In this document: piece by piece, positions 11,301 through 58,374 of the stretch | Position numbering within the stretch: the stretch's first letter is position 1 | Layout of the letters: every line of letters begins with the position of its first letter | IMG/VR virus record: IMGVR_UViG_3300021963_000137 | Span: 1-61,496 of that record | DNA: 61,496 nt | From: a virus | Taxonomy: Duplodnaviria > Caudoviricetes | Reading direction: 5' to 3' (one strand) | Notes under the pieces: model-generated | Seen by the model: only the letters and a program-made list of their open reading frames with translations | What the model was told of the DNA's origin: nothing | Database searches by the model: none | Position numbers and translations under genes: made by a program

Positions 11301-11465
11301 TTTATGACCTAATGTTTGTCCAGCCTTACCAGCAGCTTCTACAAGTTTAATTTCATGTAGTTGTTGTTTACGGGCTTCCTCCCGTTCCATCTTAGCTGTT
11401 TCTCTGGCTTCTTGAGAAGCAAACTTTAAGTACTCTCTGTGTTGTTTAGCAGATAGTGGTCCCAT
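8370..11465 (-). CDS. Internal virion protein
   Basis: 1031 aa; TDTVPAMLTPGEAVI motif, repeated [FY]x[DEN]G[TSV] motifs, coiled-coil region; position in ejection block. Confidence 0.65.
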   Translation of the reverse strand: MGPLSAKQHREYLKFASQEARETAKMEREEARKQQLHEIKLVEAAGKAGQTLGHKEDVHKYKMGTLGAPLKVKSPNPLAGTELFKRGQHMLPYQAEDAAKARKAAKQNTDTVPAMLTPGEAVIPEPAAQDPKNKPIIKRMVQEGRKANKTKKGFLEFRDGSINIVNSDVIPSRVQQAAGYKDGTKKVKGKGLAPDGFRYQNDNPTQGSISYEMPMPKGKGYMGEIPVYNQEISIRPSAMTEYTLDDNKGQYPSLVPTLSNKEVQLITQGQMNDAIANKAAAYRDMRVNAGQSPFSDRLGVKIPVGYTDTLYADGTSAVPQLMNYNEGTIQVPVPSLAYEHSDVPGSSFEDGTERVYDFNRGSSASYHYENGVEDVPESSPILEPTVIAGPVIDYQQKVIPENLVNISTTKDKIEDAVPRSAYPDVTADMKLKDVQAKINGSVSSEFDIPERPFKNVGMEVIEPLPMLAAKPKVVVEGKDRFPVPPPVVAKSVGGNNSTINMPVEPVAFIPDPNAKQAFNAEMQAIIDANEGKIVPPLKPEDDDTRPEYWIKQLKGSQKAVDKAIANKDDESAIDSLKDLFTYKGIKSVLGLNDQEVARLAVATVAGRAMGYDTARALSYGGRQAFETSLRRQAQEEANKRQDKQLAAQAEREDMRTAITLAGQAKADKKAEADRKLNEKRLSLAERKEEARAESEIQYRKFQQLKEDNKWTYEKSAAARKDQEHLSDNLQKYLAMDVSPAVRSQAMSMLKGNFETPEDWMNNMRAVTTYLAANVQHYPPGYGRKNGSGSDDDGEGGGKGKYPKKPDMMLVDGELMPVQYHKGQYQTMDGRLIPFNAVKSIEAHRYEEDTVARKVEALIPEGAKDKDGKPFNAKAVANNSNRILSSIPGGLTIDSKADVMNLAIPQLVESGLQDPDGIRKVIRSNIAKTTSPSDKDLWKPNGKNLSGKSMAEFTNALDRVIQNKYNKDNVVIDDQAAYEALKRAYKNIPADVRTKMEKSGYTQENYSTFQDWAIAETSGLPKWKSYTEPKKK

Positions 11466-17833: not shown

Positions 17834-17856
17834 TAGGTTCTTCCTTTGTTTTGTTT

Positions 17857-17874
17857 CCTATTAGGGGTCTTCTA
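17857..17874 (-). promoter_or_regulatory. Candidate phage RNAP promoter (variant GACCCCTAATAGG)
   Basis: One mismatch to the GTCCCCTAATAG core; intergenic, upstream of the tail/ejection block. Confidence 0.65.
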
Positions 17875-33615: not shown

Positions 33616-35256
33616 CTATATCCAAGTGGTTTCTAATTGTTGAAAGTTCCCCATCTTTTGTGTAAAAGGAACATTAGTTGTTGTTAGTCTATCTCCGTGT
33701 GTCCTGATTACTTCCAGAGCAATAGCAAGAGCGATAACGGTATCATCATTGTGACCAACAATAGCATTTGTCCGACCATTGTCATCAGCCACATAATTCA
33801 TTAGCTCCCCAATAATAGTTCTTGAAGGTATCCATATTTCTTCCTGTTCAATAGCACTCTTAAGAAACCCAATAATAGCTGGCTTAGAAGATGTTGTTGT
33901 TCTCCAACCCATCCGCATACCTTCATCTTTAGATACATTAGCCATTTTAGTTTGATAATACATATTAACATAGCCCATTTGAACTAGTCTATTTAATGTG
34001 GCAATACCCATACTGTTAGACTCTACCGCCATTAAAGCGTTATTATAGTATCTTCCTAGATAGAACAATAGATCTCCAAACTTACTGGGATCAATCATAT
34101 TATTTCTATACGTGGCACATATCTCTTTTTCTGCATTCATAACTACTGCAGCAGAATGGTCTTTACCTACCCCTAAGGATACGTCTGCAGCTATAACAAA
34201 GGATTGATCAAAGGATGGATATTTAAATATCTCAATAGAACCCTGTCGGGCATCCTCCATCATCATACTTTCAAAGTTAAATTCTCTCTGAGCTAATATA
34301 GGTTGTGGTATTAGTTTATTTAACTTTTCAATACTGAATACATTAGAGCCTGAAACAATAAAGGCTTCTTCAGGAGTCGCTGGGTACTCCTGTTTAAATT
34401 TGTCTACCCCACTCTCAGCTATCTTGAGTCTCCTCCAGTATAACTGATCATTATCTAAATTAAACCTTGTAACTAATATTTCTTCTTCATCTGTTTTCTC
34501 AAACCCCTCAGGGCTATTCCTACGATATTCAGACATAAGAAACCAAGGTACAAATATAGGTATATATTCATTCTTACCAGCTACAGCATCTGTCCATAGT
34601 CTATGAAATGAGTTTCCTACCCCATTAGCTGTACTCTCAAGGATAACCTCGGTACCGTCTGCTTGGGAGATCCCCTGAAATAAACCTGCTAGGATTTTTT
34701 CATCATGAAGCCAGAAGGATACTTCTGAAAGATGTGCGATCGTAGGCGTAATACCCCTACCCGCCTCAGGAGAACCTGCTGTATACAATCTATAACCAGA
34801 ATCATTATGTTCAAACATAATCTCTTTTGCGTTAGATCTCTTTAAAGTAGGTGAAAACTGTGTAGGCATATTAGAAATAATATTCCTGGACATAGTAAAT
34901 AAAGCATCAGATGTTGCAGCATCATGAGCCATAACAACACTCTTGTTGTAAGCATTGAAATAAGACTTCCAGAATACTCTACCAGTAGTATATGTAGAAA
35001 GACCCATCTGTCGGGCTTTTAAAATAATAGCCCTAACTTTTCCAGTTTCTTTTAGTTGACCTTCAATAGCATCATTAACGATCTTTTGTGCATCATTAAA
35101 TTCAAAAGGTTGGAATCCTAGTCGGGAGTCTTTGGGTAGAATCTTTATTTGCTCTTTTGCAAAGAGTTCAAAGTTATTTTGGTATTCTGCGAGTTTTTCT
35201 CTGCGCTTTAGTTCCCTTAAAGCCTCTAGCTTGCGGGTGTTTGAAGTGGTTGTCAT
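33616..35256 (-). CDS. terL: Terminase large subunit
   Basis: Walker A ILKARQMGLST, Walker B AHLSE, ESTANG, nuclease AADVS and HNDDTV motifs. Confidence 0.92.
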   Translation of the reverse strand: MTTTSNTRKLEALRELKRREKLAEYQNNFELFAKEQIKILPKDSRLGFQPFEFNDAQKIVNDAIEGQLKETGKVRAIILKARQMGLSTYTTGRVFWKSYFNAYNKSVVMAHDAATSDALFTMSRNIISNMPTQFSPTLKRSNAKEIMFEHNDSGYRLYTAGSPEAGRGITPTIAHLSEVSFWLHDEKILAGLFQGISQADGTEVILESTANGVGNSFHRLWTDAVAGKNEYIPIFVPWFLMSEYRRNSPEGFEKTDEEEILVTRFNLDNDQLYWRRLKIAESGVDKFKQEYPATPEEAFIVSGSNVFSIEKLNKLIPQPILAQREFNFESMMMEDARQGSIEIFKYPSFDQSFVIAADVSLGVGKDHSAAVVMNAEKEICATYRNNMIDPSKFGDLLFYLGRYYNNALMAVESNSMGIATLNRLVQMGYVNMYYQTKMANVSKDEGMRMGWRTTTSSKPAIIGFLKSAIEQEEIWIPSRTIIGELMNYVADDNGRTNAIVGHNDDTVIALAIALEVIRTHGDRLTTTNVPFTQKMGNFQQLETTWI

Positions 35257-35274
35257 GGGGTGTAGTTATAGTTT

Positions 35275-35293
35275 CTCTATTAGGGGACTACTC
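35275..35293 (-). promoter_or_regulatory. Candidate phage RNAP late promoter GAGTAGTCCCCTAATAG
   Basis: Repeat motif at the head of the whole late arm, about 20 nt upstream of terL. Confidence 0.8.
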
Positions 35294-35344
35294 TTTATAC
35301 TTTTTATTTATAGCCCCTTAGTCTTTGTGTGTGAAAAAGAATCA

Positions 35345-35500
35345 GGGGTTTGTTGTTCTCCCCCTCCTGTGTCGTGTGACCCCCCTGTCTCGTGGTGGTC
35401 GGTCGTGCTGCGGTGTCGGGTCGTTCCTGCCTCTCTTCTTCTGTCGGTGGTGCTGTGGCGCTGGTGCTGTCGACTTCCTTTGTTAGCGCTGTCTTGGAGT
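35345..35500 (+). other. Adenine-depleted GC-rich non-coding leader (possible genome-end/first-injected region)
   Basis: 4 A in 156 nt; no A from 35380 to 35472. Confidence 0.6.
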
Positions 35501-35505
35501 TCATT

Positions 35506-35661
35506 ATGCGTTCTATCCTCTTGTTCGTTTGTCTTCGCCGTGGTTTTGGTTTGTCCTTCTCTACTGCCTGTGGTCACTTGCTTAATGCTTGGGGTACTGC
35601 TCAGTGGTACAGTGACATGTCTACTGTTGACCTGTTCCTGTTAGCTACTCGTAAGTCTTAA
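35506..35661 (+). CDS. First early gene, 51 aa
   Basis: GGAG RBS then ATG at 35506. Confidence 0.5.
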   Translation: MRSILLFVCLRRGFGLSFSTACGHLLNAWGTAQWYSDMSTVDLFLLATRKS

Positions 35662-35711
35662 GGGCTTTCTCGATTGGCTCCTTGTGGGGTCTTTCGAGAG
35701 CGTCTTGCTCT
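35662..35711 (+). repeat. Early intergenic structured element type 1, diverged copy
   Basis: Hairpin followed by GAGAGCGTCTTGCTCT. Confidence 0.6.
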
Positions 35712-35726
35712 GTTTGGGAGGTTGGT

Positions 35727-35870
35727 ATGTATCTCGGTGACTTGCTTCGTAAGAAGCTTGCTGAGCTGCCACCTGTGGATGAGGCGGCACTTGATGCTTA
35801 CCTTGACGAAGTAGAAGAAGAATTCTGCTTTGTTTGTGGTAATGAGTGTTGCAATCATCCTCAGGATTAA
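35727..35870 (+). CDS. Small acidic early protein with C-terminal Cys cluster
   Basis: GGGAGG RBS; CFVCGNECC. Confidence 0.6.
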   Translation: MYLGDLLRKKLAELPPVDEAALDAYLDEVEEEFCFVCGNECCNHPQD

Positions 35871-35875
35871 GAGGC

Positions 35876-35921
35876 TGCCTGTAGCATCCTGTTAGGGTGC
35901 TATGGAGAGCGATCTTGCTCT
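35876..35921 (+). repeat. Early intergenic structured element type 1
   Basis: TGCCT-hairpin-GGAGAGCGATCTTGCTCT. Confidence 0.75.
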
Positions 35922-35940
35922 ATTCTAAAAGGGGTTTGTT

Positions 35941-36156
35941 ATGTCTTCTTCTTTTGTTGTCTACGCTGTGTCTGCTTCTGCTCCTCAGTGTGTTGTTGCT
36001 AGCTTTGATACTGTTGCTGAAGCTAATGCTGCTGCTTGGTTGGCTAACTCTATCGATAGTACTTGTGACTATCGTGTTGATGAGGTCTTGCTTGATGATT
36101 TGCTTTGTTCTGAGTGGAAGACCAAGGAGAGAATGTCAGGATACGAGTTACTTTAA
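35941..36156 (+). CDS. Small early protein
   Basis: AGGGG RBS; bounded by repeat elements. Confidence 0.6.
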   Translation: MSSSFVVYAVSASAPQCVVASFDTVAEANAAAWLANSIDSTCDYRVDEVLLDDLLCSEWKTKERMSGYELL

Positions 36157-36165
36157 TAAGATCTT

Positions 36166-36208
36166 TGCCTATTGGGTATAACAACCCAATGGAGAGCGAT
36201 CTTGCTCT
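36166..36208 (+). repeat. Early intergenic structured element type 1
   Basis: TGCCT-different hairpin-GGAGAGCGATCTTGCTCT. Confidence 0.75.
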
Positions 36209-36232
36209 TGTACATAACTCAAGGAGATTAAC

Positions 36233-36430
36233 ATGTACACAATCCTCAACGTCCTTACCGCTATCATGTGGTATGCTGCTGCATCATGGTCTATAGATCA
36301 GATCTATACTCATGACAACAATAGCCCTCTTATGATTGCTATCTTAGTTGCATCAGCTGTCTTAGCGGGTATGCAAGCATTTGATCTGATTAACAACATT
36401 GAAGACAAACACAACCAAGGAGAACTGTAA
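36233..36430 (+). CDS. Small two-TM early membrane protein
   Basis: AAGGAG RBS; two hydrophobic segments. Confidence 0.65.
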   Translation: MYTILNVLTAIMWYAAASWSIDQIYTHDNNSPLMIAILVASAVLAGMQAFDLINNIEDKHNQGEL

Positions 36431-36571
36431 TGTACTACGTATACCATAGGCTCACTAAGGTATTGATTGCTAAGACTACATCAGTCAGAGTGCTCAATGA
36501 GTACGATCCAACATACTATGAAGTAGTAACCTACTAATAGCATACCTTCTCGGTTAGAGAGACCAGGGCAT

Positions 36572-36587
36572 CAGGGGTAAGTACCTG
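36572..36587 (+). repeat. Early intergenic structured element type 2
   Basis: CAGG-GGTAAGTA-CCTG hairpin. Confidence 0.6.
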
Positions 36588-36615
36588 CCGTTAACATCAA
36601 CTCAAGGAGAACGTT

Positions 36616-36906
36616 ATGTCAGTAGCAGAAATCAAACCAGCATTCGCTATCAAAGGCGATACAACAACAACAGCCTACACATCTACACCATCTATCTTGA
36701 TGGCAGTGTTTGTAGACAAAGAAAACAAATACTGGTATGCAGTAGATGATCAGCAGACTATCCGTAAGATGTCCATCACACGGGATGTTGAACATGCTCG
36801 TAGAGAGTATAAGATTGCTCGTAACCTTGTAGGCAAGAAGGTATACTTTGGTGTCACACAAGGATGGGATGGTAATGTATGGTTCAATGAAGTCATTGAA
36901 GCTTAA
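36616..36906 (+). CDS. Early hypothetical protein
   Basis: AAGGAG RBS. Confidence 0.7.
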   Translation: MSVAEIKPAFAIKGDTTTTAYTSTPSILMAVFVDKENKYWYAVDDQQTIRKMSITRDVEHARREYKIARNLVGKKVYFGVTQGWDGNVWFNEVIEA

Positions 36907-36914
36907 CCTGTAAG

Positions 36915-36965
36915 ACAGTCTTCACGGCTGTATAAAAGTGAGACCTCTTGGGGTAAGTACCAAGA
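36915..36965 (+). repeat. Early structured element type 2 preceded by a predicted pseudoknot
   Basis: TCTTGG-GGTAAGTA-CCAAGA hairpin; ACAGTC/GGCTGT and TTCAC/GTGAG pairings. Confidence 0.6.
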
Positions 36966-36997
36966 TCACATAACACACTCAACACAAGGGGATAAAC

Positions 36998-37246
36998 ATG
37001 AAATACATGCTGTTAACACCAGTAACACCAGAGGACTTCTGCCTCGATACCTTCGAGGAAGTACAGGAGTCAGCACAAGAATTCGGATGTAACATAATGT
37101 TATCAACAAAGATAACAGGAGGAACAATTGCATTCTTTGTAGCTAAGACAAAAGAAGCACTAGAGAGTATGTGCTCACAGGTAGACCTAGATGGTACCGT
37201 AATAGGGTACTCAGAAACCTATGACCAACTCGTAGTAATCAGTTAA
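36998..37246 (+). CDS. Early hypothetical protein
   Basis: AAGGGG RBS. Confidence 0.65.
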   Translation: MKYMLLTPVTPEDFCLDTFEEVQESAQEFGCNIMLSTKITGGTIAFFVAKTKEALESMCSQVDLDGTVIGYSETYDQLVVIS

Positions 37247-37260
37247 CCAAAGAGAATAAT

Positions 37261-37452
37261 ATGAACTACCATACCTATATGACGTTACCATTAGAACGAT
37301 TCCTAGAAGAACTTAAACAAGAAAGAGATAGGAGGGTATACCTAAGGACAAAATCTCTGCAGGAAGTACTACAAGGATATACCCAGACATACACCCGACA
37401 GGCAACTGAGGAGAAGTATGCAGAGAACGTAGCGAGAGGAGGTTTTTTGTAG
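37261..37452 (+). CDS. Early hypothetical protein
   Basis: ORF in operon. Confidence 0.55.
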   Translation: MNYHTYMTLPLERFLEELKQERDRRVYLRTKSLQEVLQGYTQTYTRQATEEKYAENVARGGFL

Positions 37453-37516
37453 AAAGTATTTTGTGTGTGCTAAAAGTGTAACAAAGTGAATCAAAATGAA
37501 CATAAAGGAAGTTCAA

Positions 37517-37849
37517 ATGAAACAACACATCCATCATGACGCCATCATAGCGTGGGCTAAAGGTGCTAAGATACAATTCCAAGACACCACTAGTGCAGCT
37601 AAATGGCATGACTCAGAAAGCCCTATGTGGTATGAAGATCACATATACCGAGTAAAGCCTGAACCAATCATCCGAGACGTAACCCATAACCTCTACATTA
37701 ACAGTGTAGAAGAACTAGCCTTAGCATTCGAAGAAAGAGGAGTAGGCAGAGTGCATCCATCATACAAACTCATAGGCTCAATCAAGCTTACATTCCAAGA
37801 CAAAAAACTAGTTAACTATTCAGAAGTATTCATTGACGGAGTAAGCTAA
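37517..37849 (+). CDS. Hypothetical phage protein (start revised to MKQHIH)
   Basis: AAGGA RBS; H...IIAWAKGAKIQ...P.W....YRVKP motif. Confidence 0.65.
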   Translation: MKQHIHHDAIIAWAKGAKIQFQDTTSAAKWHDSESPMWYEDHIYRVKPEPIIRDVTHNLYINSVEELALAFEERGVGRVHPSYKLIGSIKLTFQDKKLVNYSEVFIDGVS

Positions 37850-38055
37850 TGATCTTCCTTCCACTACTCTTTGTATGCCTAACTGACAACGTAACATGTC
37901 AATTCGGTATACTAAAAGCAACAGATGACTTTAACAAATGTCTCATACAAGTCCAAGAGGCTTCTAAAGAACTCGAAGATAATCCTACAGTAGGAGTATT
38001 CAGAGCAACGTGTGCAGAAATAAATGATGTAACTTTAAAAGGAAAACAAACATGA
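37849..38055 (+). CDS. Small Cys-containing protein with hydrophobic N-terminus
   Basis: Coupled ORF; four Cys; similar to 41478-41669. Confidence 0.6.
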   Translation: MIFLPLLFVCLTDNVTCQFGILKATDDFNKCLIQVQEASKELEDNPTVGVFRATCAEINDVTLKGKQT

Positions 38056-38486
38056 ATCCAGAAGTCAAACAACTGTGGCTAGATGCCTTACGTTCAGGTA
38101 AATACACTCAAGGTAAATCTCTACTCAGACCAACTGAAAGCACCTATTGTTGTCTAGGTGTGTTATGCCAGATAGCAGAAGAAAGAGGTATATGTGAATA
38201 CATTCCTTCAGACGAACATGAAGGATTCACAATTAAATATCCAGATGTATTCCAAGATGGTTTTTGTGACGGAAATGTATACGAAGAATCTGAACTACCT
38301 TGGGTAGTAAAACAATGGGCAGGATTAGATAACGAGAATCCTAAAGTAACACTCAATGAAAGGAACACAAAAGAACACCTAAAAGGTACAATGCAAGACA
38401 ACACCATAATAACCTTAGCACAGTTAAATGACGAACATAATTATACATTCACAGAATTAGCAGACATCATTGAGGAGCAATTATGA
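38052..38486 (+). CDS. Hypothetical phage protein
   Basis: W..ALRSGKY.QG..L...CCLGVLC...LND...F.E.AD.IE motif. Confidence 0.7.
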   Translation: MNPEVKQLWLDALRSGKYTQGKSLLRPTESTYCCLGVLCQIAEERGICEYIPSDEHEGFTIKYPDVFQDGFCDGNVYEESELPWVVKQWAGLDNENPKVTLNERNTKEHLKGTMQDNTIITLAQLNDEHNYTFTELADIIEEQL

Positions 38487-38722
38487 TTAAAAGAGATAAA
38501 AGCATGGGTGCATTGTTAACCAAAAACATCACCTATACACTGCACATTAACCAAGAACAGTTAGACCTACTCGAAGAACTACTCGGCTTTGTAGGCGGTA
38601 TAGGTCGTAACAGAGACATGACTAACGAACTACAAATGGCTCTTGAACAATATGCCACAAGAGACAGAGACATGTGTGAAACAAACTACTTCAAAGAAGA
38701 AAGCTTAGTGGTAGTCAAATGA
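38483..38722 (+). CDS. Hypothetical protein
   Basis: GAGGAG RBS, coupled ORF. Confidence 0.6.
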   Translation: MIKRDKSMGALLTKNITYTLHINQEQLDLLEELLGFVGGIGRNRDMTNELQMALEQYATRDRDMCETNYFKEESLVVVK

Positions 38723-38907
38723 TGTTCGAAACATTACTCATCATCCTGTCAATAGTCATTGTATCATACATTCTGATATTCGTATCAGACTATATGCTTA
38801 ATGACTCCGATCAAGAACGTCTCAATCAAGAATACGCAGAGAAAGCCAGAAAACACAATGAGCTTATGGTCAAAAAGGAGAATCGTAATGGCCCATTCAG
38901 CGGCTGA
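38719..38907 (+). CDS. Small membrane protein
   Basis: N-terminal TM segment. Confidence 0.55.
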   Translation: MMFETLLIILSIVIVSYILIFVSDYMLNDSDQERLNQEYAEKARKHNELMVKKENRNGPFSG

Positions 38908-39038
38908 AATATACTTTGATCTTATCAAACGTATCAAAGATAAAGTCAAAGCAGACATATCCATTGTGTATGATCCTGAAACTGGTATCCAAAAACATTT
39001 TCTTAAAGGTAAATTATTAAAAGTTAAAAAGGTATCCG

Positions 39039-39344
39039 ATGGAACAAAACCTAACAGCAATAATCTATGACAAGAAAGGAAGAATCTTAAGTATAGGTAA
39101 AAACAGTTATACCAAGACACATCCTTTTCAAGCGTTACATGCTAAAAAGCAGAATATGCCTGAGAGAATCTTTTTACATGCTGAAGTTTCAGCTATTGTG
39201 AGATGTTCTGATATATCTAAAGCACATAAGATGCTTGTTATCAGAACAAACAAAGAAGGTAGACATCTATATGCAAAACCATGTAATATATGTATGTCTG
39301 CTATAAAGTCAGTAAACATTAACCAAATTGAATGGAGTATATAG
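39039..39344 (+). CDS. Small cytidine-deaminase-fold protein
   Basis: HAE and PCxxC zinc motifs (LHAEVSAI, KPCNIC). Confidence 0.75.
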   Translation: MEQNLTAIIYDKKGRILSIGKNSYTKTHPFQALHAKKQNMPERIFLHAEVSAIVRCSDISKAHKMLVIRTNKEGRHLYAKPCNICMSAIKSVNINQIEWSI

Positions 39345-39520
39345 TATGTTCTTAGCTATTCTACGTGATGACTTCTCTTTAGTAGGTATCGGTGAATCCA
39401 TTGAAGAAGCCTTTGATGCTCTCCATGACCAAGAGTCAGGTGCAGAGATTGAAGACTGTGACTTCTTTGACCTAGTCAACCCAATGCGATTCACCTACGT
39501 ACTCACTCAGAAGTAAACTC

Positions 39521-39540
39521 TAGTTGTCCCCTAATAGGGA
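39521..39540 (+). promoter_or_regulatory. Candidate phage RNAP promoter AGTTGTCCCCTAATAGG
   Basis: Repeat motif; followed by an AT-rich tract. Confidence 0.8.
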
Positions 39541-39604
39541 ATTCTGAAAAAATAATATTTATTAATATATTATTAATAAAAGAACTTAATTAAGATAAAT
39601 AAAA
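39541..39604. other. AT-rich tract, candidate replication origin
   Basis: Nearly pure A/T directly downstream of the phage promoter. Confidence 0.5.
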
Positions 39605-40023: not shown

Positions 40024-40046
40024 ATTTTTAATCCTCATAGTAGTTT

Positions 40047-40064
40047 CCTATTAGGGGACTACTC
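40047..40064 (-). promoter_or_regulatory. Candidate phage RNAP late promoter GAGTAGTCCCCTAATAGG
   Basis: Shares an identical 17-mer with the terL promoter. Confidence 0.8.
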
Positions 40065-46344: not shown

Positions 46345-46554
46345 ATGAATATTGAAGAACAAAAAGCTTTTGTTAAAGCATATAGTAATAATGTTGCTCA
46401 TAATCCTGATGATTTTGTAGCAGACTTTGTTGCTAAATATAACTTAAATCAAGACATTGATTACTCATATGAACACACATCTATAATGGACGCATTAGGG
46501 ATGTGGCATGACGCTATCAAATGGAAACTAAATGAACTTAATAAGAACAGTTAA
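46345..46554 (+). CDS. Hypothetical protein
   Basis: ORF in operon. Confidence 0.5.
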   Translation: MNIEEQKAFVKAYSNNVAHNPDDFVADFVAKYNLNQDIDYSYEHTSIMDALGMWHDAIKWKLNELNKNS

Positions 46555-47137
46555 AAAGTTTGTTACAGGCACTGATAAGTACTTTGATATCTACGAATGT
46601 ACTGTTGACGAAGTTGAGTCTTATACATCTGACTCAGGTAAATCAATGATACGTGTTAAGATAAATGAAGTAGAATACTCAGGCTTGTATAACAAATGGG
46701 TGTATGAATACCTATGTGAGAACGAAGGAACAACTTCCTTTGTAGTCATGTGGAGAGCACCTAAGGGTAAGCCTATGTTGGCATACCTAAAAGAACTATG
46801 GCAGAACCATATTGAAGGAGTAACAGATGGAGAAGTGTCCAGTGAATCTGACGCTTATAGCCCAAGCGGTGAGTCATTTTGTTATCTTTGGGTCAATAAA
46901 GATACAGACAGAAAGTATATCGGAAAGCACAAAGGAACAGCAGATGATGGATATGTCTGCAGTTCTGAGTCGATGCTTGAAGAATACAATGATTGTCCAT
47001 CACGATTCATCAGGACAATCTTAGCATATGGTACTGACCAAGAAATGCATGAGTTAGAAACAATGTTATTGTTGCAACTCAAAGCTTCTAAGTCAGAATT
47101 GTTTTATAACTTGAGTAACAATTTAAGGAAAGACTAA
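46532..47137 (+). CDS. Protein with C-terminal GIY-YIG-like endonuclease domain
   Basis: FCYLWVN...KYIGKHKG..DDGY..SS...E...FYN. Confidence 0.7.
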   Translation: MNLIRTVKKFVTGTDKYFDIYECTVDEVESYTSDSGKSMIRVKINEVEYSGLYNKWVYEYLCENEGTTSFVVMWRAPKGKPMLAYLKELWQNHIEGVTDGEVSSESDAYSPSGESFCYLWVNKDTDRKYIGKHKGTADDGYVCSSESMLEEYNDCPSRFIRTILAYGTDQEMHELETMLLLQLKASKSELFYNLSNNLRKD

Positions 47138-47400: not shown

Positions 47401-47419
47401 CAGTTGTCCCCTAATAGGA
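47401..47419 (+). promoter_or_regulatory. Candidate phage RNAP promoter AGTTGTCCCCTAATAGG
   Basis: Repeat motif upstream of the DNA replication block. Confidence 0.8.
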
Positions 47420-47561
47420 GTGAACATGAAAAAGACAATCGTAACAGTTGTGTTTGAACTTAGAGATGAACTATCTAAAGATCAAACCTTAAATACAATA
47501 GACTGCCTTATTGACAGTGATGGTATGCTCAAAGGAGAAACTTATAACGTGGTAGATATTG

Positions 47562-47950: not shown

Positions 47951-48418
47951 ATGAAAACTCAGAAGGATTGGGATCAGTTTTATCTGAAGATAGCACAGCT
48001 AGTAGCGCAACAAAGCTATGCTAAAGACCGTAAAGTAGGTGCTGTTATCGTTAAGAATGATAACATCATTTCTTTTTCTTACAATGGAACACCACGAGGA
48101 TGGGATAATGAAACTCAGACAGATGATGGACAAACTAAATCAATGGTACTACACGCTGAAGCTCAAGCTATTGCTAAGTTGGCTCGATCAACCTTATCTA
48201 GTGATAGCGCTACTCTCTACTGTACCCTTAGTCCTTGTATTGATTGTGCAAAGCTTATTAGTGAAGTGGGTATTAAACGGTTAGTTTATATTGATGAATA
48301 TAAATGTACTCAAGGTATTGATTTCTTAATAGCTAACAATGTATTAGTCAATGAAGAATATTCAACAACAAGATTAGCCAGTAAAGAATGGTTAGCTAGA
48401 ACAGGATTACTATGGTAG
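47951..48418 (+). CDS. dCMP deaminase
   Basis: KVGAVIV, YNGTP, HAE, TLSPCIDC. Confidence 0.9.
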   Translation: MKTQKDWDQFYLKIAQLVAQQSYAKDRKVGAVIVKNDNIISFSYNGTPRGWDNETQTDDGQTKSMVLHAEAQAIAKLARSTLSSDSATLYCTLSPCIDCAKLISEVGIKRLVYIDEYKCTQGIDFLIANNVLVNEEYSTTRLASKEWLARTGLLW

Positions 48419-50919: not shown

Positions 50920-51757
50920 TAATGATATTCAGTTTGACATGGCAATTATAGATGCAGACAGTATCATGTATCAAATTGCTTTTGTTGAACCCTCTCCAGC
51001 TAAATGCAAGAAAGGTCTTGACAATAAGCTAAAAGAAATTATGGAAAACACTAATGCCTCTAATGGTGTAGTGTTTATTAAAGGTAGTAATAACTTTAGA
51101 TATGAAGTTGATATTGCTTATAAAGGAAATCGTAAAGATACTATTGAACCTGAAGTAAAAGATCGTATTGAAATGTTATATGAATACGCTAAAGACTTCT
51201 GTGTATTAAGCGATAAAGGTGAGGCAGATGATCTTTGTGGTATCACTGCTCGCAAAGCTCTTGATGAAGGTAAACTATATATTGTATCTCACATAGATAA
51301 AGATCTTAATGCTATCACAGGATGGCATCATAACTTTAAGACAGGTGAGATATATCATATGGATGACTCACAAGCTTATCGTTTCTTAATGACTCAAATC
51401 CTTACAGGAGATGCTACAGATAATATCCAAGGGTTACGTGGTGTAGGTATTAAGACAGCTGAAAAGCTAATTAAAGATACACCTAATAACCTCTTGTGGG
51501 ATAAGGTTATCGAGTTGTGGAAAGCAAAACAAGGAGACTTGTGGTATAATAATTTCCTGAAGTGTGCTAACTGTATTTACATCAGGGAGTTTGAAGAAGA
51601 TCTCAGACCATTAACTTTTGAAGAAATAAAAGAAAGATTAGTATGGACTATGGACATTGGCATCCCCTTACAGACAGACCAGACGGAGCCTTTGGATTTA
51701 TCTACTATGTCGAAAACCTCCAAACAGGAAGACGATACATTGGAAGAAAGCAATTAA
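50903..51757 (+). CDS. 5'-3' exonuclease (T7 gp6-like)
   Basis: IDAD, YKGNR, EADD, DKDL, GDATDNIQG motifs. Confidence 0.9.
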   Translation: MQKYTDNDIQFDMAIIDADSIMYQIAFVEPSPAKCKKGLDNKLKEIMENTNASNGVVFIKGSNNFRYEVDIAYKGNRKDTIEPEVKDRIEMLYEYAKDFCVLSDKGEADDLCGITARKALDEGKLYIVSHIDKDLNAITGWHHNFKTGEIYHMDDSQAYRFLMTQILTGDATDNIQGLRGVGIKTAEKLIKDTPNNLLWDKVIELWKAKQGDLWYNNFLKCANCIYIREFEEDLRPLTFEEIKERLVWTMDIGIPLQTDQTEPLDLSTMSKTSKQEDDTLEESN

Positions 51758-52059
51758 TCAGTGAATCAAAACGACTACTACCTGGAGCAACAAGAAGAAC
51801 CATCACTCGAAGAGAGAGTGATTGGAGAGATTATAGATCCTCGTGCAGAGAACTCTTGGATGATATTAACTACTACGGATTTGATTCATTTACTTTTGTT
51901 ATCTACGAATGGGTATTTGGAAAAGGAATGCTTACGTATCGGGAAGTCCAAGAGCAATGGGAATGTGAAGTCCTTTCGAGAATTGAAACACCTGATGGAG
52001 AACGCCTCTACTACAATGGGAATATTGGGGCAGTAAAATTTCTTAAACCAAAGCTATGA
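51643..52059 (+). CDS. GIY-YIG-like endonuclease
   Basis: FGFIY...YIGRKQ...ESDWRDY.SS...YYNGNI. Confidence 0.75.
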   Translation: MDYGHWHPLTDRPDGAFGFIYYVENLQTGRRYIGRKQLISESKRLLPGATRRTITRRESDWRDYRSSCRELLDDINYYGFDSFTFVIYEWVFGKGMLTYREVQEQWECEVLSRIETPDGERLYYNGNIGAVKFLKPKL

Positions 52060-53823: not shown

Positions 53824-56025
53824 ATGAATCCAGTACAATATCTATCTGAAAGAGTAGCCAAAGTCGTGGTCAACTCAGATAAGATTTATAATGAAGGTGC
53901 TCGACTATTAGCACATCATCCAACATGGGAATATGACTTAGAAAGGTTTGTAAATGAATCGTGGGACACACTCCTCCGCTACTGTATTCGCAACAAGAAT
54001 GCAACTCATAGCGCATCAGTTAAACTTACTTTTGCAAGTGACCTTATCGGAAAACGAATCGCAAGAGCTATTGGAACTGATGAAAGCAACATCAAATCAA
54101 CTCTCGCTCTTGGAGACATTCTACTCGAAACATTTCTCCAAGATAGTCTTATAGATATCTTCAGAGAGTATGATGGATTTAAAGCTCCATACATGGTGCG
54201 TATTGTCAACATGCCTGACAATATTAAGCCTACATTAATAGGTACTTCATTTGAACCTTTATTACCTATAGCTGGTCTATATAGTAACCTTACTAAAGAA
54301 CCATTCATTAAAGGATGGACTAACAGTAAGCTGTTTCATGAGTACTTAGATAAACCTTTTGTACGTGCATTAGAAACATTACGCCAACAACCTTGGGTAT
54401 TAAATCAAGGTGTGTTAGAAGGTATGAGAAACTATAAGCCAACTGAAATACTAAAGTTGGTTGATGATGATGGTGTATTATATGACTACAACATTCATTA
54501 TGAAAATTTAGAACTACCAAAGAAGCTTAAGCACCTAGATGGTACTTCTTTCCTTGGTAAGAAAGACCCTAAGCTACAACGTATGCTTAGTAAGTTCTTT
54601 GAATACAATCAAGTAGTAAAGAAAGCTGAATTGATTGGTGATAGATCATTCTATCAAGAAGTATCCTGTGACTATCGTGGTCGAGTATACTATGCTGAAT
54701 CCTTCTTAGAGTTTCAGGGTAGTGACTTGGCTCGTAGTCTCTTTTTATTCCAGAATAAAAAAGAAATGGATGATCGTGGTTACTTCTGGCTTAAGGTTCA
54801 TACAGCAGGATGCTATAATGAATCGTTTAATGTTAATAAATTACCACATTATTTTACTACTGACTATAAGACTTATTTAAAAGGAGAAGGTTTAGATACT
54901 ATCTCCCTTGATAAAATGACTCTTGAAGATAGAGCTATATGGGTAGATAATAATTTAATTAAATTAGCTAACATTGCTAATCAATATACTATAGATACAT
55001 CCGCTGAAAAGCCTTATAGTTTATTAGCTTGTTGTCTTGAAATTAAAAATTATATCCAAGCTAAATCTAAAGGTAAGAAGCATATGTCTGGTCTTCCTAT
55101 ACCTATTGATGGTAGTAATAATGGATGGCAGCATCTGGCAGCTATGTCTAGAGATACCCAAGCAGCTACCTTAGTATCATTAGTACCTACACCTATACAG
55201 AAAGACTTTTATGTAGCTGTGGCTAAAGAGCTAATTAACATTATGCCTGACTACTTTAAACAAAAGAATATGCCTATGAAAGATATCCGTAAAGGTATTG
55301 CTAAACGAGGTTCTATGACTCGTGCATACTCAGCAGGTAAACAACGTATTGCTAAGAATATGTATGATGACTGCCATGTAGAAGGATTTACTGTTAAATA
55401 TGGTATCACAGAAAAAGAATGTGGAGACTTAGCAGGTAACCTAATTAAGGCTATTAATGCAGTATGCTCTGGTCCATTAAAGACAACTAAGTTCTTACAA
55501 AAAATTGCTGAACATGAGCTTAACTCTGGTCGTAATCAACTATCATGGCATACACCTTCAGGATTCCCTGTAGTGTATAAAGCATTTCTTCAGCATGAAC
55601 GTAAACATAGAGGTACTATTAGAGGTATACCTGGAAACCCTAAAGGAAGGATTAGACATGTTATTAAAGTGGATGTACTCAATAAAGATACAGGTGAAAA
55701 AGTTCCTTGTAGACGCTCCTTTGCTTCTGGCATCAGCCCTAATCTCGTTCATAGTTACGATGCTGCTCATATGGCTAATGTTATCTCTATTTTTAATGGC
55801 AACTTTGGTGCTGTCCACGACAGCTTTAGTACTCATGCCAGTGAAGTGGATTTTCTTCAGGAAGTAACTAAGATGACCTTTGTAGCACAGTATGATATAG
55901 AAAACTTCTTTAGTAATCTTATGGATACATTAATGCTTAACAAAGATACATTCACTTACCCTCCACCAGAAGAAGGTACATTAGATTTAAAACAAGTCTA
56001 TGAATCTAAATACTTTTTCTGCTAG
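53824..56025 (+). CDS. T7-type single-subunit DNA-directed RNA polymerase
   Basis: DYRGRVY, motif A IDGSNNGWQH, motif B RKGIAKRGSMTRAY, PNLVHSYDA, motif C VHDSF. Confidence 0.95.
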   Translation: MNPVQYLSERVAKVVVNSDKIYNEGARLLAHHPTWEYDLERFVNESWDTLLRYCIRNKNATHSASVKLTFASDLIGKRIARAIGTDESNIKSTLALGDILLETFLQDSLIDIFREYDGFKAPYMVRIVNMPDNIKPTLIGTSFEPLLPIAGLYSNLTKEPFIKGWTNSKLFHEYLDKPFVRALETLRQQPWVLNQGVLEGMRNYKPTEILKLVDDDGVLYDYNIHYENLELPKKLKHLDGTSFLGKKDPKLQRMLSKFFEYNQVVKKAELIGDRSFYQEVSCDYRGRVYYAESFLEFQGSDLARSLFLFQNKKEMDDRGYFWLKVHTAGCYNESFNVNKLPHYFTTDYKTYLKGEGLDTISLDKMTLEDRAIWVDNNLIKLANIANQYTIDTSAEKPYSLLACCLEIKNYIQAKSKGKKHMSGLPIPIDGSNNGWQHLAAMSRDTQAATLVSLVPTPIQKDFYVAVAKELINIMPDYFKQKNMPMKDIRKGIAKRGSMTRAYSAGKQRIAKNMYDDCHVEGFTVKYGITEKECGDLAGNLIKAINAVCSGPLKTTKFLQKIAEHELNSGRNQLSWHTPSGFPVVYKAFLQHERKHRGTIRGIPGNPKGRIRHVIKVDVLNKDTGEKVPCRRSFASGISPNLVHSYDAAHMANVISIFNGNFGAVHDSFSTHASEVDFLQEVTKMTFVAQYDIENFFSNLMDTLMLNKDTFTYPPPEEGTLDLKQVYESKYFFC

Positions 56026-56041
56026 TTGTCCCCTAATACCG
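56023..56041 (+). promoter_or_regulatory. Candidate phage RNAP promoter, variant at the start site (AGTTGTCCCCTAATACC)
   Basis: Repeat motif overlapping the RNAP stop codon, upstream of RNR. Confidence 0.7.
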
Positions 56042-56062
56042 AAGAATAAACAAAAGGAACTC

Positions 56063-57940
56063 ATGAACTCTTATCAACAACTTATCGCTAAATCCCGTTA
56101 TGCCCGTTACTTACCTGAAAAGAAACGTAGGGAGAATTGGAATGAAACCTCTGAACGTTGGGTAGCTTTCTTTCAAAGAGAATTAAAAAATAAAATTAAA
56201 CCAAATGACAGTATCTGGGAAATTTTAGGTAATGAGATTAATAATTTGTCTACATTACCCTCAATGCGTTCTATTATGACAGCTGGAGAGGCATTACGCC
56301 GTACTAATGTGGCTGCATATAATTGTTCTTATTTACCTATTGATAGTCCTCGTTGTTTTGATGAGGCCATGTATATCCTATTATGTGGTACTGGAGTGGG
56401 CTTCTCGGCTGAACAGCAATATACCAGTCAGTTACCTCCAGTACCTTTCTTAGTAAATGATTATTCTTTTATCATTAAGGTTGAGGACAGCAAAGAAGGT
56501 TGGTGTGACGCATATCGTACACTTATTAATAACTTATACAAAGGTATTATTCCTCACTGGGATACATCTTTAGTACGCCCAGCAGGTGCTCCACTTAAGA
56601 CCTTTGGTGGTCGTGCTTCTGGTCCTGGCCCATTGATTGACTTGTTCAGCTATACAGTTAACAAGTTTATGGTAGCTCAAGGACGTCAACTAAAGCCTAT
56701 TGAGTGCCATGATATCATGTGTAAGATTGGTGAGGTAGTTGTGGTAGGTGGTGTACGCCGCAGTGCTATGATTAGCTTAGGAGACTTAGGAGACTATGAC
56801 CATGCTACTGCTAAGACAGGTACATGGTGGGAACAACATGGTGAACGTGCTTTAGCTAATAACTCAGCTGTATACAATAGTAAACCTTCTGTAGGCGAGT
56901 TCATGAAGGAATGGTTAGACATCTACAACAGTCATTCAGGTGAACGAGGAATCTTTAATCGTGAAGCATCACAAAAACAAGCAGCAAAATGGGGAAGACG
57001 ATCAGCTAGTGTTGATTACGGAACTAATCCCTGTTCAGAAATCATCCTTAAGCCCTACCAGTTTTGCAACTTATCCACCGTTGTTGTCTCACCAGAGGAT
57101 ACTCTTGCCTCCCTCAAACACAAGGTCAGAGTGGCTACTATTATGGGTACCATGCAGTCAACCCTAACTTACTTCCCTTACCTACGTGATATCTGGCGTA
57201 CTAATACTGAGTCAGAACGCCTGTTAGGTGTGTCTATGACTGGTATCCTTGACAATCAACTATTACGTGGTCAAGGTAATATGAATTTAGAAGAAGTATT
57301 ATCTATCCTACGTGACGTAGCTCGTGAGACTAATGAAGAATGGGCTGAGATCTTAGGTATCTCTGCTTCAACAGCTATTACTTGTGTTAAGCCTGAAGGT
57401 ACTGTATCTCAGTTAACACAAACAAGTAGTGGTATTCATGCTGGACATGCACCATATTATATCAGACGTATTCGTCAGGATAAAAAGGATCCTTTAACAC
57501 AGTTCTTAATTGAACAAGGTGTTCCTCATGAAGACTGTGTTATGAAGCCTGATCAAACATCTGTGTTTAGCTTCCCACAACGTTCACCAGGATTTACCCG
57601 CAAGGACTTAACCGCTATTGAACACTTAAATATCTGGTTAATGTATCAACGTCATTGGTGTGAACACAAACCATCTGTCACTATCTCTGTTAAAGAACAT
57701 GAGTGGATGGAGGTAGGTGCATGGGTATATGAACACTTTGATGAATGTACTGGTATTAGCTTCTTACCTGATGATGGTGGTACTTATCGTCAGGCTCCAT
57801 ACGAAGATATTGACTTGTCAGTATATCATCGTTTAAAAGATACACAACCCACTATTGATTGGGAAAATTTTATTGAAGATCGTGATAATGTTGAGGGTGC
57901 TCAAACATTAGCATGTACAGCTGGAGGATGTGAGATTTGA
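56063..57940 (+). CDS. nrdJ: Ribonucleotide reductase class II (adenosylcobalamin-dependent)
   Basis: YNC, GGVRRSA, TNPCSEI, VKPEGTVS, C-terminal CxxxxC; no small-subunit gene. Confidence 0.88.
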   Translation: MNSYQQLIAKSRYARYLPEKKRRENWNETSERWVAFFQRELKNKIKPNDSIWEILGNEINNLSTLPSMRSIMTAGEALRRTNVAAYNCSYLPIDSPRCFDEAMYILLCGTGVGFSAEQQYTSQLPPVPFLVNDYSFIIKVEDSKEGWCDAYRTLINNLYKGIIPHWDTSLVRPAGAPLKTFGGRASGPGPLIDLFSYTVNKFMVAQGRQLKPIECHDIMCKIGEVVVVGGVRRSAMISLGDLGDYDHATAKTGTWWEQHGERALANNSAVYNSKPSVGEFMKEWLDIYNSHSGERGIFNREASQKQAAKWGRRSASVDYGTNPCSEIILKPYQFCNLSTVVVSPEDTLASLKHKVRVATIMGTMQSTLTYFPYLRDIWRTNTESERLLGVSMTGILDNQLLRGQGNMNLEEVLSILRDVARETNEEWAEILGISASTAITCVKPEGTVSQLTQTSSGIHAGHAPYYIRRIRQDKKDPLTQFLIEQGVPHEDCVMKPDQTSVFSFPQRSPGFTRKDLTAIEHLNIWLMYQRHWCEHKPSVTISVKEHEWMEVGAWVYEHFDECTGISFLPDDGGTYRQAPYEDIDLSVYHRLKDTQPTIDWENFIEDRDNVEGAQTLACTAGGCEI

Positions 57941-58206
57941 ACTTATATAAATTTTATACTGATACATGTGTACCATGCAGACAAATGAATAATCGTATTA
58001 AAGATGTAGATTTTAATTTTGATTATGGTGTAGTATTAACTAATGTTAATGCTACTGAAAACACAGAGCTTAGAGACAAGTATGGGGTTAAGACTGTACC
58101 TACCTTTGTACTAGCCGATGATAAAGATAATATGATTCGTAAGATTAGTGGATCTATTTCTTTACCTGAGTTAGATACTTTTATTACAGGCACAGCCGTC
58201 CCCTAA
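57937..58206 (+). CDS. Thioredoxin-like protein
   Basis: CVPC, YGVKTVPTF. Confidence 0.85.
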   Translation: MNLYKFYTDTCVPCRQMNNRIKDVDFNFDYGVVLTNVNATENTELRDKYGVKTVPTFVLADDKDNMIRKISGSISLPELDTFITGTAVP

Positions 58207-58211
58207 TAGGG
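58193..58211 (+). promoter_or_regulatory. Candidate phage RNAP promoter for the tRNA pair
   Basis: AGCCGTCCCCTAATAGGG immediately before the first tRNA. Confidence 0.75.
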
Positions 58212-58216
58212 AACAA

Positions 58217-58291
58217 TGCGGGATAGCTCAGTAGGAGAGTGCTGGACTCATAATCCAGAGGTCAGTGGTGCGAATCCACTTTCCGCAACCA
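58217..58291 (+). tRNA. tRNA with CAT anticodon (Met; Ile2 not excluded)
   Basis: Acceptor TGCGGGA/TTCCGCA, anticodon arm CTGGA-CTCATAA-TCCAG, encoded CCA. Confidence 0.88.
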
Positions 58292-58299
58292 AACAACAA

Positions 58300-58374
58300 G
58301 GGTCATTAGTTCAATGGATAGAACAGTGATCTTCTAAGTCACGAGTGCATGTTCGATTCATGCATGACCCACCA
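58300..58374 (+). tRNA. tRNA-Arg (TCT)
   Basis: Acceptor GGGTCAT/ATGACCC, GTGAT-CTTCTAA-GTCAC, TTCGA T-loop, encoded CCA. Confidence 0.92.

Follow-up and report, generated by a model that had tools for sequence, protein, structure and literature searches.

Adenine starvation at the head of the early operon in a podovirus-like phage and its relatives

In phage T7, gene 0.3 enters the host cell first and is made during a halt in DNA entry, after which the remainder of the genome enters safely (as stated in a section of PMC3874165). The leading regions of conjugative plasmids are similar in that the first-entering DNA carries early counter-defence genes (ardA/ardB; same source, in part). In classical restriction-site avoidance, recognition sequences become under-represented through selection on the DNA, such that particular words are stripped genome-wide. 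Here, we describe a phage in which one base, adenine (A), is nearly absent from one strand of a short segment of DNA. The window analysed is the entire 61,496-bp contig of IMG/VR record IMGVR_UViG_3300021963_000137, and the A-free stretch (starting at position 35345 on the + strand) lies mid-record. It opens the only early operon of the phage, whose head comprises a leader of ~160 nucleotides (nt) and the first one to three small, exchangeable cassettes.

The phage resembles T7 in being podovirus-like, in encoding a single-subunit RNA polymerase with promoters of its own and in having its first genes read by another polymerase. The explanation favoured below would also share the logic of T7, in which a protective protein is produced from the leading DNA before the remainder is exposed (PMC3874165, in part). 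The leading DNA of T7 is of ordinary composition and site-free by circumstance, whereas here one base is excluded wholesale. Moreover, the polymerase gene is located 18 kb from the operon head, the late arm is oppositely directed, and polar entry of the DNA would have to be assumed. No Ocr-like protein was found with Pfam and homologue searches, and no first gene for a DNA-mimic anti-restriction protein emerged: early genes 1-3 matched no Pfam family, and the commonest first-gene family has a predicted OB-like fold. Unlike the present segment, the leading DNA of conjugative plasmids enters single-stranded and with hairpin promoters, and we know of no base exclusion reported for it. In contrast to classical avoidance of individual words, the local change in composition seen here removes whole classes of words, and the A's left over in the segment show no additional avoidance of palindromes.

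Only 4 of the 156 nt at 35345-35500 are A (C 43, G 52, T 57), and none is found across the 93 nt at 35380-35472, in exact agreement with the counts of the first-pass annotation of this DNA. The three longest A-free runs of the 61.5-kb genome cluster at 35345-35562 (93 nt at 35380-35472, 47 nt at 35516-35562 and 34 nt at 35345-35378), and the longest run elsewhere comprises 31 nt. Given a genome-wide A content of 31.6%, the number of A-free runs of at least 93 nt expected by chance is 9e-12; in 300 shuffles, the maximal run had a mean length of 27 nt and never exceeded 47 nt. The A-free stretch is real and far above chance expectation. The same annotation had described the first three genes as T/G-rich, which is confirmed by the base counts for 35345-36160 (A 117, C 167, G 229, T 303 of 816 nt; 14% A), and had reported a flip to an A/C-rich strand near 36200. 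The flip is real, but the strand turns A-rich rather than A/C-rich (36200-37000: A 265, C 167, G 164, T 205 of 801 nt; 33% A, with C about equal to G). Accordingly, the AT skew changes from -0.42 (35001-36000) to +0.26 (37001-38000), with cumulative minima of the AT and GC skews at 36391 and 35103, respectively, and a keto maximum at 36177. Four-base palindromes are scarce, with 3 at 35345-35562 compared to a genome mean of 12.7 per 218-nt window, and only 3 of 563 such windows hold three or fewer.

The same trait was found in relatives. A scan of IMG/VR with the terminase yielded 204 relatives, of which 80 loci were kept, and A-run statistics were obtained for those 70 loci in which the sequence upstream of the terminase extended over at least 400 nt. 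At the corresponding place, 65 of these 70 loci contain an A-free run of at least 40 nt, 55 one of at least 60 nt, 46 one of at least 90 nt and 27 one of at least 150 nt, the five loci lacking a run of at least 40 nt being L028, L069, L073, L078 and L082. Further down on the same strand, the longest A-free runs do not exceed 26 nt (median 17 nt). To align the relatives, a regular expression for a conserved early motif (see below) was applied to 73 sequences (72 loci and the window), of which 60 could be anchored, and a profile was calculated from 51 distinct ones. The A content falls from ~30% in the motif to 0.2-0.9% at +50 to +100 and is back at ~30% only near +1100. The A-starved zone has a median length of 245 nt (range 15-1110 nt), and its length varies even between phages whose terminases are 95-99% identical; the sequence of the zone is poorly conserved. 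Hence, the trait is conserved and the sequence is not.

The nearest cultured phage is Roseobacter phage CRP-7, whose terminase (TerL) and RNA polymerase are 57% and 33% identical, respectively, to those of the present phage. Its record ends with A-free runs (224, 168, 104 and 62 nt) that immediately precede the first + strand gene, and no A-free run in the rest of its genome exceeds 33 nt. Two distant phages sharing the terminase (MW202692.1 and KX257490.2) are without the trait, their longest A-free runs being 38 and 41 nt. An assembly artefact is ruled out by the presence of the trait in an isolate genome and dozens of independent assemblies. A literature search for adenine-free early leaders or operon heads in phages and for papers on CRP-7 and roseophages, supplements excluded, returned no description of the trait, and it is unmentioned in the passages of the CRP-7 paper available to us.

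The first genes behind the leader show on what level the exclusion acts. One first-gene family is present in at least 29 loci (e.g., L003 1364-1714, - strand, and L078 1604-1891, - strand). In nine A-starved members with a total of 1103 codons, A occurs 18, 89 and 16 times at codon positions 1, 2 and 3, respectively, and Lys, Ile, Thr, Asn, Gln and Met are nearly gone. An A-rich orthologue, encoded in the L078/L082 lineage, which has no zone, contains 35, 21 and 20 A's at the three positions of its 96 codons and uses a normal amino-acid alphabet. Its homology is supported by a BLASTP E value of 5e-12 and shared invariant residues; a homologue search with the A-rich protein returned only itself. 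Selection thus acts on the nucleotide itself, with synonymous third positions losing A and amino-acid usage shifting along. The 523 A's left over in the zones of 43 relatives are mainly found in the contexts GAC, GAG, TAC and TAT, and the ribosome-binding sites of many first genes consist of GGGG combined with ATG or of GGAGG combined with GTG or TTG (with GGGG and GTG in two cases). The leftover A's are located where function demands them, namely in Asp, Glu and Tyr codons, ribosome-binding sites, starts and stops.

The commonest first early protein (family b), which exists in A-starved and A-rich versions, has a confidently predicted small OB-like domain (predicted local distance difference test score, pLDDT, 82, with values >90 at residues 30-117), preceded by a disordered low-complexity Ala/Ser/Val tail of variable length, and carries invariant Cys-Ser-Asp and Trp-Phe motifs. 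Fold searches against PDB and BFVD gave nothing at an E value of 1e-3 or better, the best match (5.9e-3) being weak and of generic OB type. In CRP-7, the same N-terminal signature is found in a 128-codon ORF (open reading frame) on the + strand (L001 5609-5995), in which A occurs 2, 6 and 1 times at codon positions 1, 2 and 3. The gene annotated as gp72 on the opposite strand (L001 5272-5967; record 57271-57966, - strand) is probably a false ORF, most readily understood as an artefact of a strand that lacks T and hence stop codons, and the + strand ORF is the better fit. The trait constitutes an annotation trap, generating spurious long ORFs on the wrong strand.

The genome is organised into two arms that diverge at ~35.3 kb. 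The late arm runs leftward on the - strand from the gene for the terminase large subunit (33616-35256; phrog_2, E 6e-28), followed by portal, scaffold, capsid, tail and lysis genes and, finally, three giant ORFs. The early arm runs rightward on the + strand, starting with many small genes, after which come genes for an SSB-like protein, a deaminase, DNA polymerase, exonuclease, primase-helicase, RNA polymerase and ribonucleotide reductase. The A-free stretch opens the early arm at this divergence, as first annotated. Additional features of the early arm include two ORFs with a cytidine/dCMP deaminase fold (39039-39344 and 47951-48418); the small one (101 amino acids (aa); Pfam E 3.3e-7, 30.6 bits at a cut-off of 25) occupies the penultimate place among the ORFs of the region devoid of phage promoters described below. 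A GIY-YIG SegE-like homing endonuclease (51643-52059; Pfam E 2.3e-27) is encoded between the exonuclease and primase-helicase genes, and a second ORF (46532-47137) gave a weak homing-endonuclease match.

At the arm junction, a late-arm copy of the T7-type phage promoter consensus (GTCCCCTAATAGAGAA; 35273-35288, - strand, exact match), which lies in front of the terminase gene and is taken to drive the late arm, is followed by a conserved motif, TTTGTGTGTGAAAAAGAATCA (35324-35344, + strand), which is presumed to be the early promoter or its core and is unique in the window at up to 3 mismatches. No canonical sigma-70 site was called by a promoter scan at this motif, and fitting -35 and -10 boxes by eye failed. 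The A-free stretch begins at the 3' end of the motif with the adenine-purged untranslated leader (35345-35505; 5 A in 161 nt). Next come early gene 1 (35506-35661; 51 aa, 13% A, with A at 2 of 52 third positions), early gene 2 (35727-35870; 47 aa, acidic and Cys-rich, 24% A, 8 of 48 third positions) and early gene 3 (35941-36156; 71 aa, acidic, 18% A, 6 of 72 third positions). Early gene 4 (36233-36430; 65 aa, 31% A, 16 of 66 third positions) is the first of normal A-rich composition, and 34 of the 97 codons of early gene 6 have A at the third position. All these genes are on the + strand.

Genes 2, 3 and 4 are each preceded by a hairpin of the form GAGAGCG(A)TCTTGCTCT with a 5-bp stem. Upstream of gene 2, it is present as a variant copy, GAGAGCGTCTTGCTCT (35696-35711, + strand; read from the sequence, with the same element in relatives), and upstream of genes 3 and 4 as exact copies of GAGAGCGATCTTGCTCT (35905-35921 and 36192-36208, + strand; 2 exact matches compared to 0.01 expected). 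The flip in composition falls after the third copy, where the A-starved zone ends (at a resolution of 100-nt bins). A contig of run X3 joins 35716 to 36213, with the cassettes between hairpin copies missing. Together, the repeat flanking the early cassettes and this natural deletion variant suggest that cassettes are shuffled by recombination at the repeat. Homologues of gene 1 were found in 7, of gene 2 in 1, of gene 3 in 2 and of gene 4 in 10 of the loci. T4-type phages possess mobile early cassettes flanked by promoters and stem-loops, which are added or removed by recombination between the stem-loops and are not base-starved. The present arrangement is similar in that small early genes without annotated function lie between conserved stem-loop copies. 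Compared with N4-type phages, the conserved hairpin in front of genes 2-4 could serve as a promoter, terminator, processing site or recombination site.

The 16-nt consensus GTCCCCTAATAGGGAA has 9 matches in the genome at up to 3 mismatches (0.69 expected), with exact copies at 35288 (-), 39526 (+) and 58198 (+), and is read from its sequence as the candidate promoter of the phage's T7-type RNA polymerase (53824-56025, + strand; 733 aa; phrog_414, E 1.6e-94), which is encoded 18 kb downstream of the operon head. Seven sites are plausible (17854-17869(-), 35273-35288(-), 39526-39541(+), 40044-40059(-), 47406-47421(+), 56028-56043(+) and 58198-58213(+)). The last of them is located directly before two transfer RNA (tRNA) genes, for tRNA-Met (CAT; 58217-58291) and tRNA-Arg (TCT; 58300-58374); a tRNA-Arg (TCT) is also reported for CRP-7 in the part of the CRP-7 paper available. 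A genome scan at up to 3 mismatches placed no consensus site within 35340-39525, and the first promoter of the early arm is the exact copy at 39526-39541. Transcription of the initial 4.2 kb of this arm must consequently depend on another polymerase, presumably that of the host. The A content is 29-42% downstream of the seven phage-type promoters, compared to 2% after the early motif, so that A purging is not a general property of transcription starts.

The first-pass annotation had further proposed that the segment might serve as a loading or ATP-sparing initial template for a virion RNA polymerase, or as a packaging signal. These suggestions were not borne out: the sole RNA polymerase is the 733-aa T7-type enzyme, no result supports an ATP-sparing template, and no evidence for a packaging signal was found. 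The giant late ORFs on the - strand (436-4050, 1204 aa; 4051-8352, 1433 aa; 8370-11465, 1031 aa) were considered as virion RNA polymerases and rejected, as their products had no sequence match in Pfam, PHROGs or PDB and the Atlas look-alikes of the 1433-aa protein belong to polyvalent-protein (LPD3, PBECR3, MuF_C) or lysozyme/SLT clusters. Treated as leads only, these look-alikes raise the possibility that the giant ORFs may encode internal virion proteins that are ejected.

The first-pass annotation had also inferred that the divergence point is the physical genome end and the first-entering DNA. Of 23 public sequencing runs, all in the form of assembled contigs, the four compared with the window (X1, X2, X3 and the RNA run X8) showed no molecule starts or ends and no RNA coverage of the zone, an outcome without weight in either direction. 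As for contig ends, one contig bridges 35179-35921, none of the 11 near-full-length contigs (that of the window included; cut points read by hand) is cut at the arm junction, and the 59 cut flanks show no pile-up there (10 end 100-1000 nt from the terminase start, compared to 13 at 2-3 kb and 17 at 3-4 kb), all of which would look alike in the case of a collapsed terminal repeat. Contig ends cluster 2-4 kb upstream of the terminase instead (30 of the 59 cut flanks; loci L003-L082), probably because strain-variable early cassettes break the assemblies.

The genome as a whole is strongly shaped by restriction avoidance. Genome-wide, CCGG is found 0 times compared to 21.8 expected, CGCG 0 compared to 13.5, GGCC 14 compared to 38.4, GTGCAC 0 compared to 6.8-10.9 and CCATGG 1 compared to 8; GAGCTC, CCTAGG, TGGCCA and AGGCCT are likewise absent, whereas GCGC is not avoided (46 compared to 35.9). 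This footprint could point to the host's enzymes. In the zones of the 43 relatives, which are much more G+C-rich, CCGG, GGCC and CGCG reach 0.20, 0.21 and 0.30 of the shuffle expectation, the lowest three values among the 16 G/C-only tetramers, and GCGC, which sits in a conserved block, is undepleted. Palindromes per kb are about four-fold rarer in the zones than in a control region, by composition alone. The initial argument that an A-less strand cannot hold palindromes containing A/T is supported, and its premise of restriction evasion fits the avoidance seen across the genome.

We consider it likely that A is avoided in order to escape a factor that acts early in infection on A or on A:T pairs. 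The version that we favour, if only tentatively, places this factor at the level of the duplex, the operon head being a target-free, first-exposed segment that combines an extreme form of restriction avoidance with a race of the T7/Ocr type. The operon head would be the first phage nucleic acid met by the cell. A duplex with one A-less strand could contain no palindrome with an A:T pair and would lack all sites that need adenine on both strands, i.e., those of the usual Type I and most Type II enzymes, head-to-head Type III pairs and most BREX-type motifs, and the few possible G/C-only palindromes would be removed singly, as in the remainder of the genome. Transcription and translation of the operon head could thus supply early proteins, probably for counter-defence, in a host with any set of restriction systems, and the ordinary A-rich genome would follow once these proteins are present. 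Such a scheme would amount to the T7 gene 0.3/Ocr race made sequence-independent. Most Type I enzymes do methylate adenines on both strands (PMC3874165, in part). By our own rough estimate, the benefit could be large: a random segment of 0.2-0.8 kb would have a chance in the range of tens of percent of containing at least one site for a host with a few systems of a specificity equivalent to 6 bp.

This version rests on three suppositions: DNA entry would be slow and start at this end, protection would concern the duplex and not the transcript, and the early cassettes would be counter-defence genes. The duplex is favoured because restriction is a constitutive first-line threat, because it has left its imprint on this genome and because T7 provides a precedent. 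The accessory-gene behaviour of the cassettes (with genes 2 and 3 rare and a deletion variant in existence) fits a counter-defence role.

Several observations weigh against the restriction version. Polar entry from this locus is its key premise, and the CRP-7 paper, in the part available, calls the terminase distantly related to T4-like enzymes, which would fit headful packaging. Some lineages combine an A-poor leader (9-17% A, counted by hand) with a first gene of 23-27% A, and a site-free leader alone would protect the duplex little. Zone length tracks the number of cassettes and does not extend to a fixed distance, and the early proteins match no known anti-restriction family in Pfam and homologue searches. 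The depletion of G/C-only palindromes is genome-wide and shows no specificity for the zone. Once composition is allowed for, the leftover A's of the zones show no avoidance of palindromes: 6-mer palindromes containing A/T number 76 compared to 77.7 expected (ratio 0.98; control region 0.89), and the ratios for the corresponding 4-mers are 0.82 in the zones and 0.94 in the control. In this window, the rare A's of the leader even form GTCGAC and AGCGCT. Finally, the longest T-free run in the 43 zones is 11 nt, and a zone is never T-free in place of A-free.

The last of these points leads to the reading that stands close behind the restriction version, in which avoidance operates on the transcript: an A-less first mRNA would escape A-dependent endoribonucleases (of the MazF, ToxN or HEPN type, or a phage-borne host-shutoff RNase), the naked leader being its most exposed part. 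This possibility, although somewhat doubtful, accommodates the facts that depletion sets in where transcription presumably starts, peaks in the untranslated leader and always concerns the sense strand. It would likewise account for an avoidance of A that is independent of context and leaves A's behind without regard to palindromes, and for the lineages with an A-poor leader in front of an ordinary first gene, as the leader is not covered by ribosomes; moreover, polar DNA entry becomes unnecessary. A laboratory analogue is provided by the MazF-based single-protein-production system, in which mRNAs made ACA-less by synonymous target removal are immune to the RNase (PMC9102682, in part), although this system is man-made, removes one trinucleotide instead of a base and involves no leader. 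On the other hand, third positions retain and even favour U (58-98 T per gene), which argues against evasion of RNase E, an enzyme that prefers A/U-rich RNA. Furthermore, we know of no constitutive A-specific RNase in such hosts, toxin RNases are usually activated only after the first transcript has been made, and the later phage mRNAs, being A-rich, would have to be protected in some other way.

The strand polarity could also reflect a requirement on the template. If thymine in the virion DNA were modified or replaced, for instance by deoxyuridine (dU) or a 5-substituted U, or if the template were attacked at T, a T-free template would act as a 'boot sector', giving the host polymerase access to the first genes at a time when no protective early protein has yet been made. 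The template strand indeed lacks T, and the non-template strand contains 41% T; genes of the early arm include those for a dCMP deaminase, a MazG-like pyrophosphatase and a nucleoside deoxyribosyltransferase-like protein, besides a second, small deaminase-like ORF, and a Pfam search of 43 early-arm ORFs found no thymidylate synthase or dUTPase. Roseophages with dU-substituted DNA, which use a deaminase and a (pyro)phosphatase, exist (PMC8323127, in part). We nevertheless regard this explanation as unlikely. A/T-containing sites such as GTGCAC, GAGCTC, CCTAGG and CCATGG are purged genome-wide, which would be needless if A:T pairs were masked, and the ORFs scanned include no hydroxymethylase, DNA kinase or transferase set for thymine hypermodification. 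In addition, the clade assembles readily from many ordinary metagenomes, and only the first 0.2-1 kb of the 4.2-kb region not read by the phage polymerase is T-free in the template.

Equally improbable, in our estimation, is that the leader is a functional RNA or regulatory element (an attenuator, anti-terminator, translational occluder or protein sponge) whose composition is a by-product, with the low A content of the genes resulting from hydrophobic products. The leader does contain conserved blocks (a GGGTTCGCCCC-type hairpin, a C-run and a GGCGCTG block) and a terminator-like hairpin at 35443-35474, a CCUCC-like stretch pairs with the ribosome-binding site in the minimum-energy fold, and several first genes encode small membrane-like peptides. 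However, an alignment of 28 relatives gave 0 consensus pairs with RNAalifold, the folding energy equals that of shuffled sequences (z +0.42; 129 of 200 shuffles fold at least as well), and Rfam returned 0 matches at E values up to 1, so that the leader is not a known or conserved structured RNA. Moreover, synonymous A's are purged from genes for soluble proteins predicted to be folded as well, and the A-rich orthologue exists. Explanations based on chi-like sites, primase sites, ultraviolet-induced dimers, R-loops, H-NS or Rho were dropped, as they fail to account for a context-free exclusion of one base across leader and genes.

It is very unlikely that the first transcript is adapted to scarce ATP, caused by leakage during injection or by ATP-degrading defence effectors, since such effectors fire after infection has been sensed, tRNA charging requires ATP as well and ATP is normally the most abundant nucleoside triphosphate, even though A is avoided irrespective of context from the first RNA bases onward. 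There is just as little to recommend a terminal or packaging signal, or a mutational artefact such as strand-biased hypermutation of A akin to that of diversity-generating retroelements: the zone does adjoin the terminase gene at the arm junction in this genome, but in CRP-7 nine annotated genes (gp63-gp71), besides the probably spurious gp72, lie between the two; no reverse transcriptase was detected among 42 large ORFs (PHROGs) or 43 early-arm ORFs (Pfam), template and variable repeats not having been searched; and a mutational origin is unlikely because C is not depleted, functional A's are retained exactly and A-rich lineages share both the motif that serves as presumed promoter and the first gene, a pattern that is better explained by selection.

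If the favoured explanation is true, phages can escape unknown host defences by deleting one letter from their first-exposed nucleic acid, instead of removing single sites or modifying their DNA, and this deletion would work against any host. An A-less transcript would, by its composition, be free of A-dependent cleavage sites, and its synthesis would be independent of ATP as a substrate. It is conceivable, although we would not call it probable, that mobile elements more generally use an A-less, first-expressed 'boot' segment, the duplex and transcript of which lack adenine-dependent targets. Such a segment would offer no target to restriction based on N6-methyladenine (m6A), to BREX or to A-specific defence RNases and would not call for ATP as a building block of RNA, with proteins built from an alphabet of ~13 amino acids. 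The first-gene family represents a natural experiment in which selection at the nucleotide level has restricted folded proteins to fewer amino acids, with the A-rich orthologue as a control. The trait also marks very early, rapidly exchanged small genes, which are promising as sources of new counter-defence functions. CRP-7 and its RCA roseobacter host are available as a cultured pair and, if a general 'boot' strategy does exist, phages of the CRP-7 type would offer the first chance to identify the selective agent in a culturable system.

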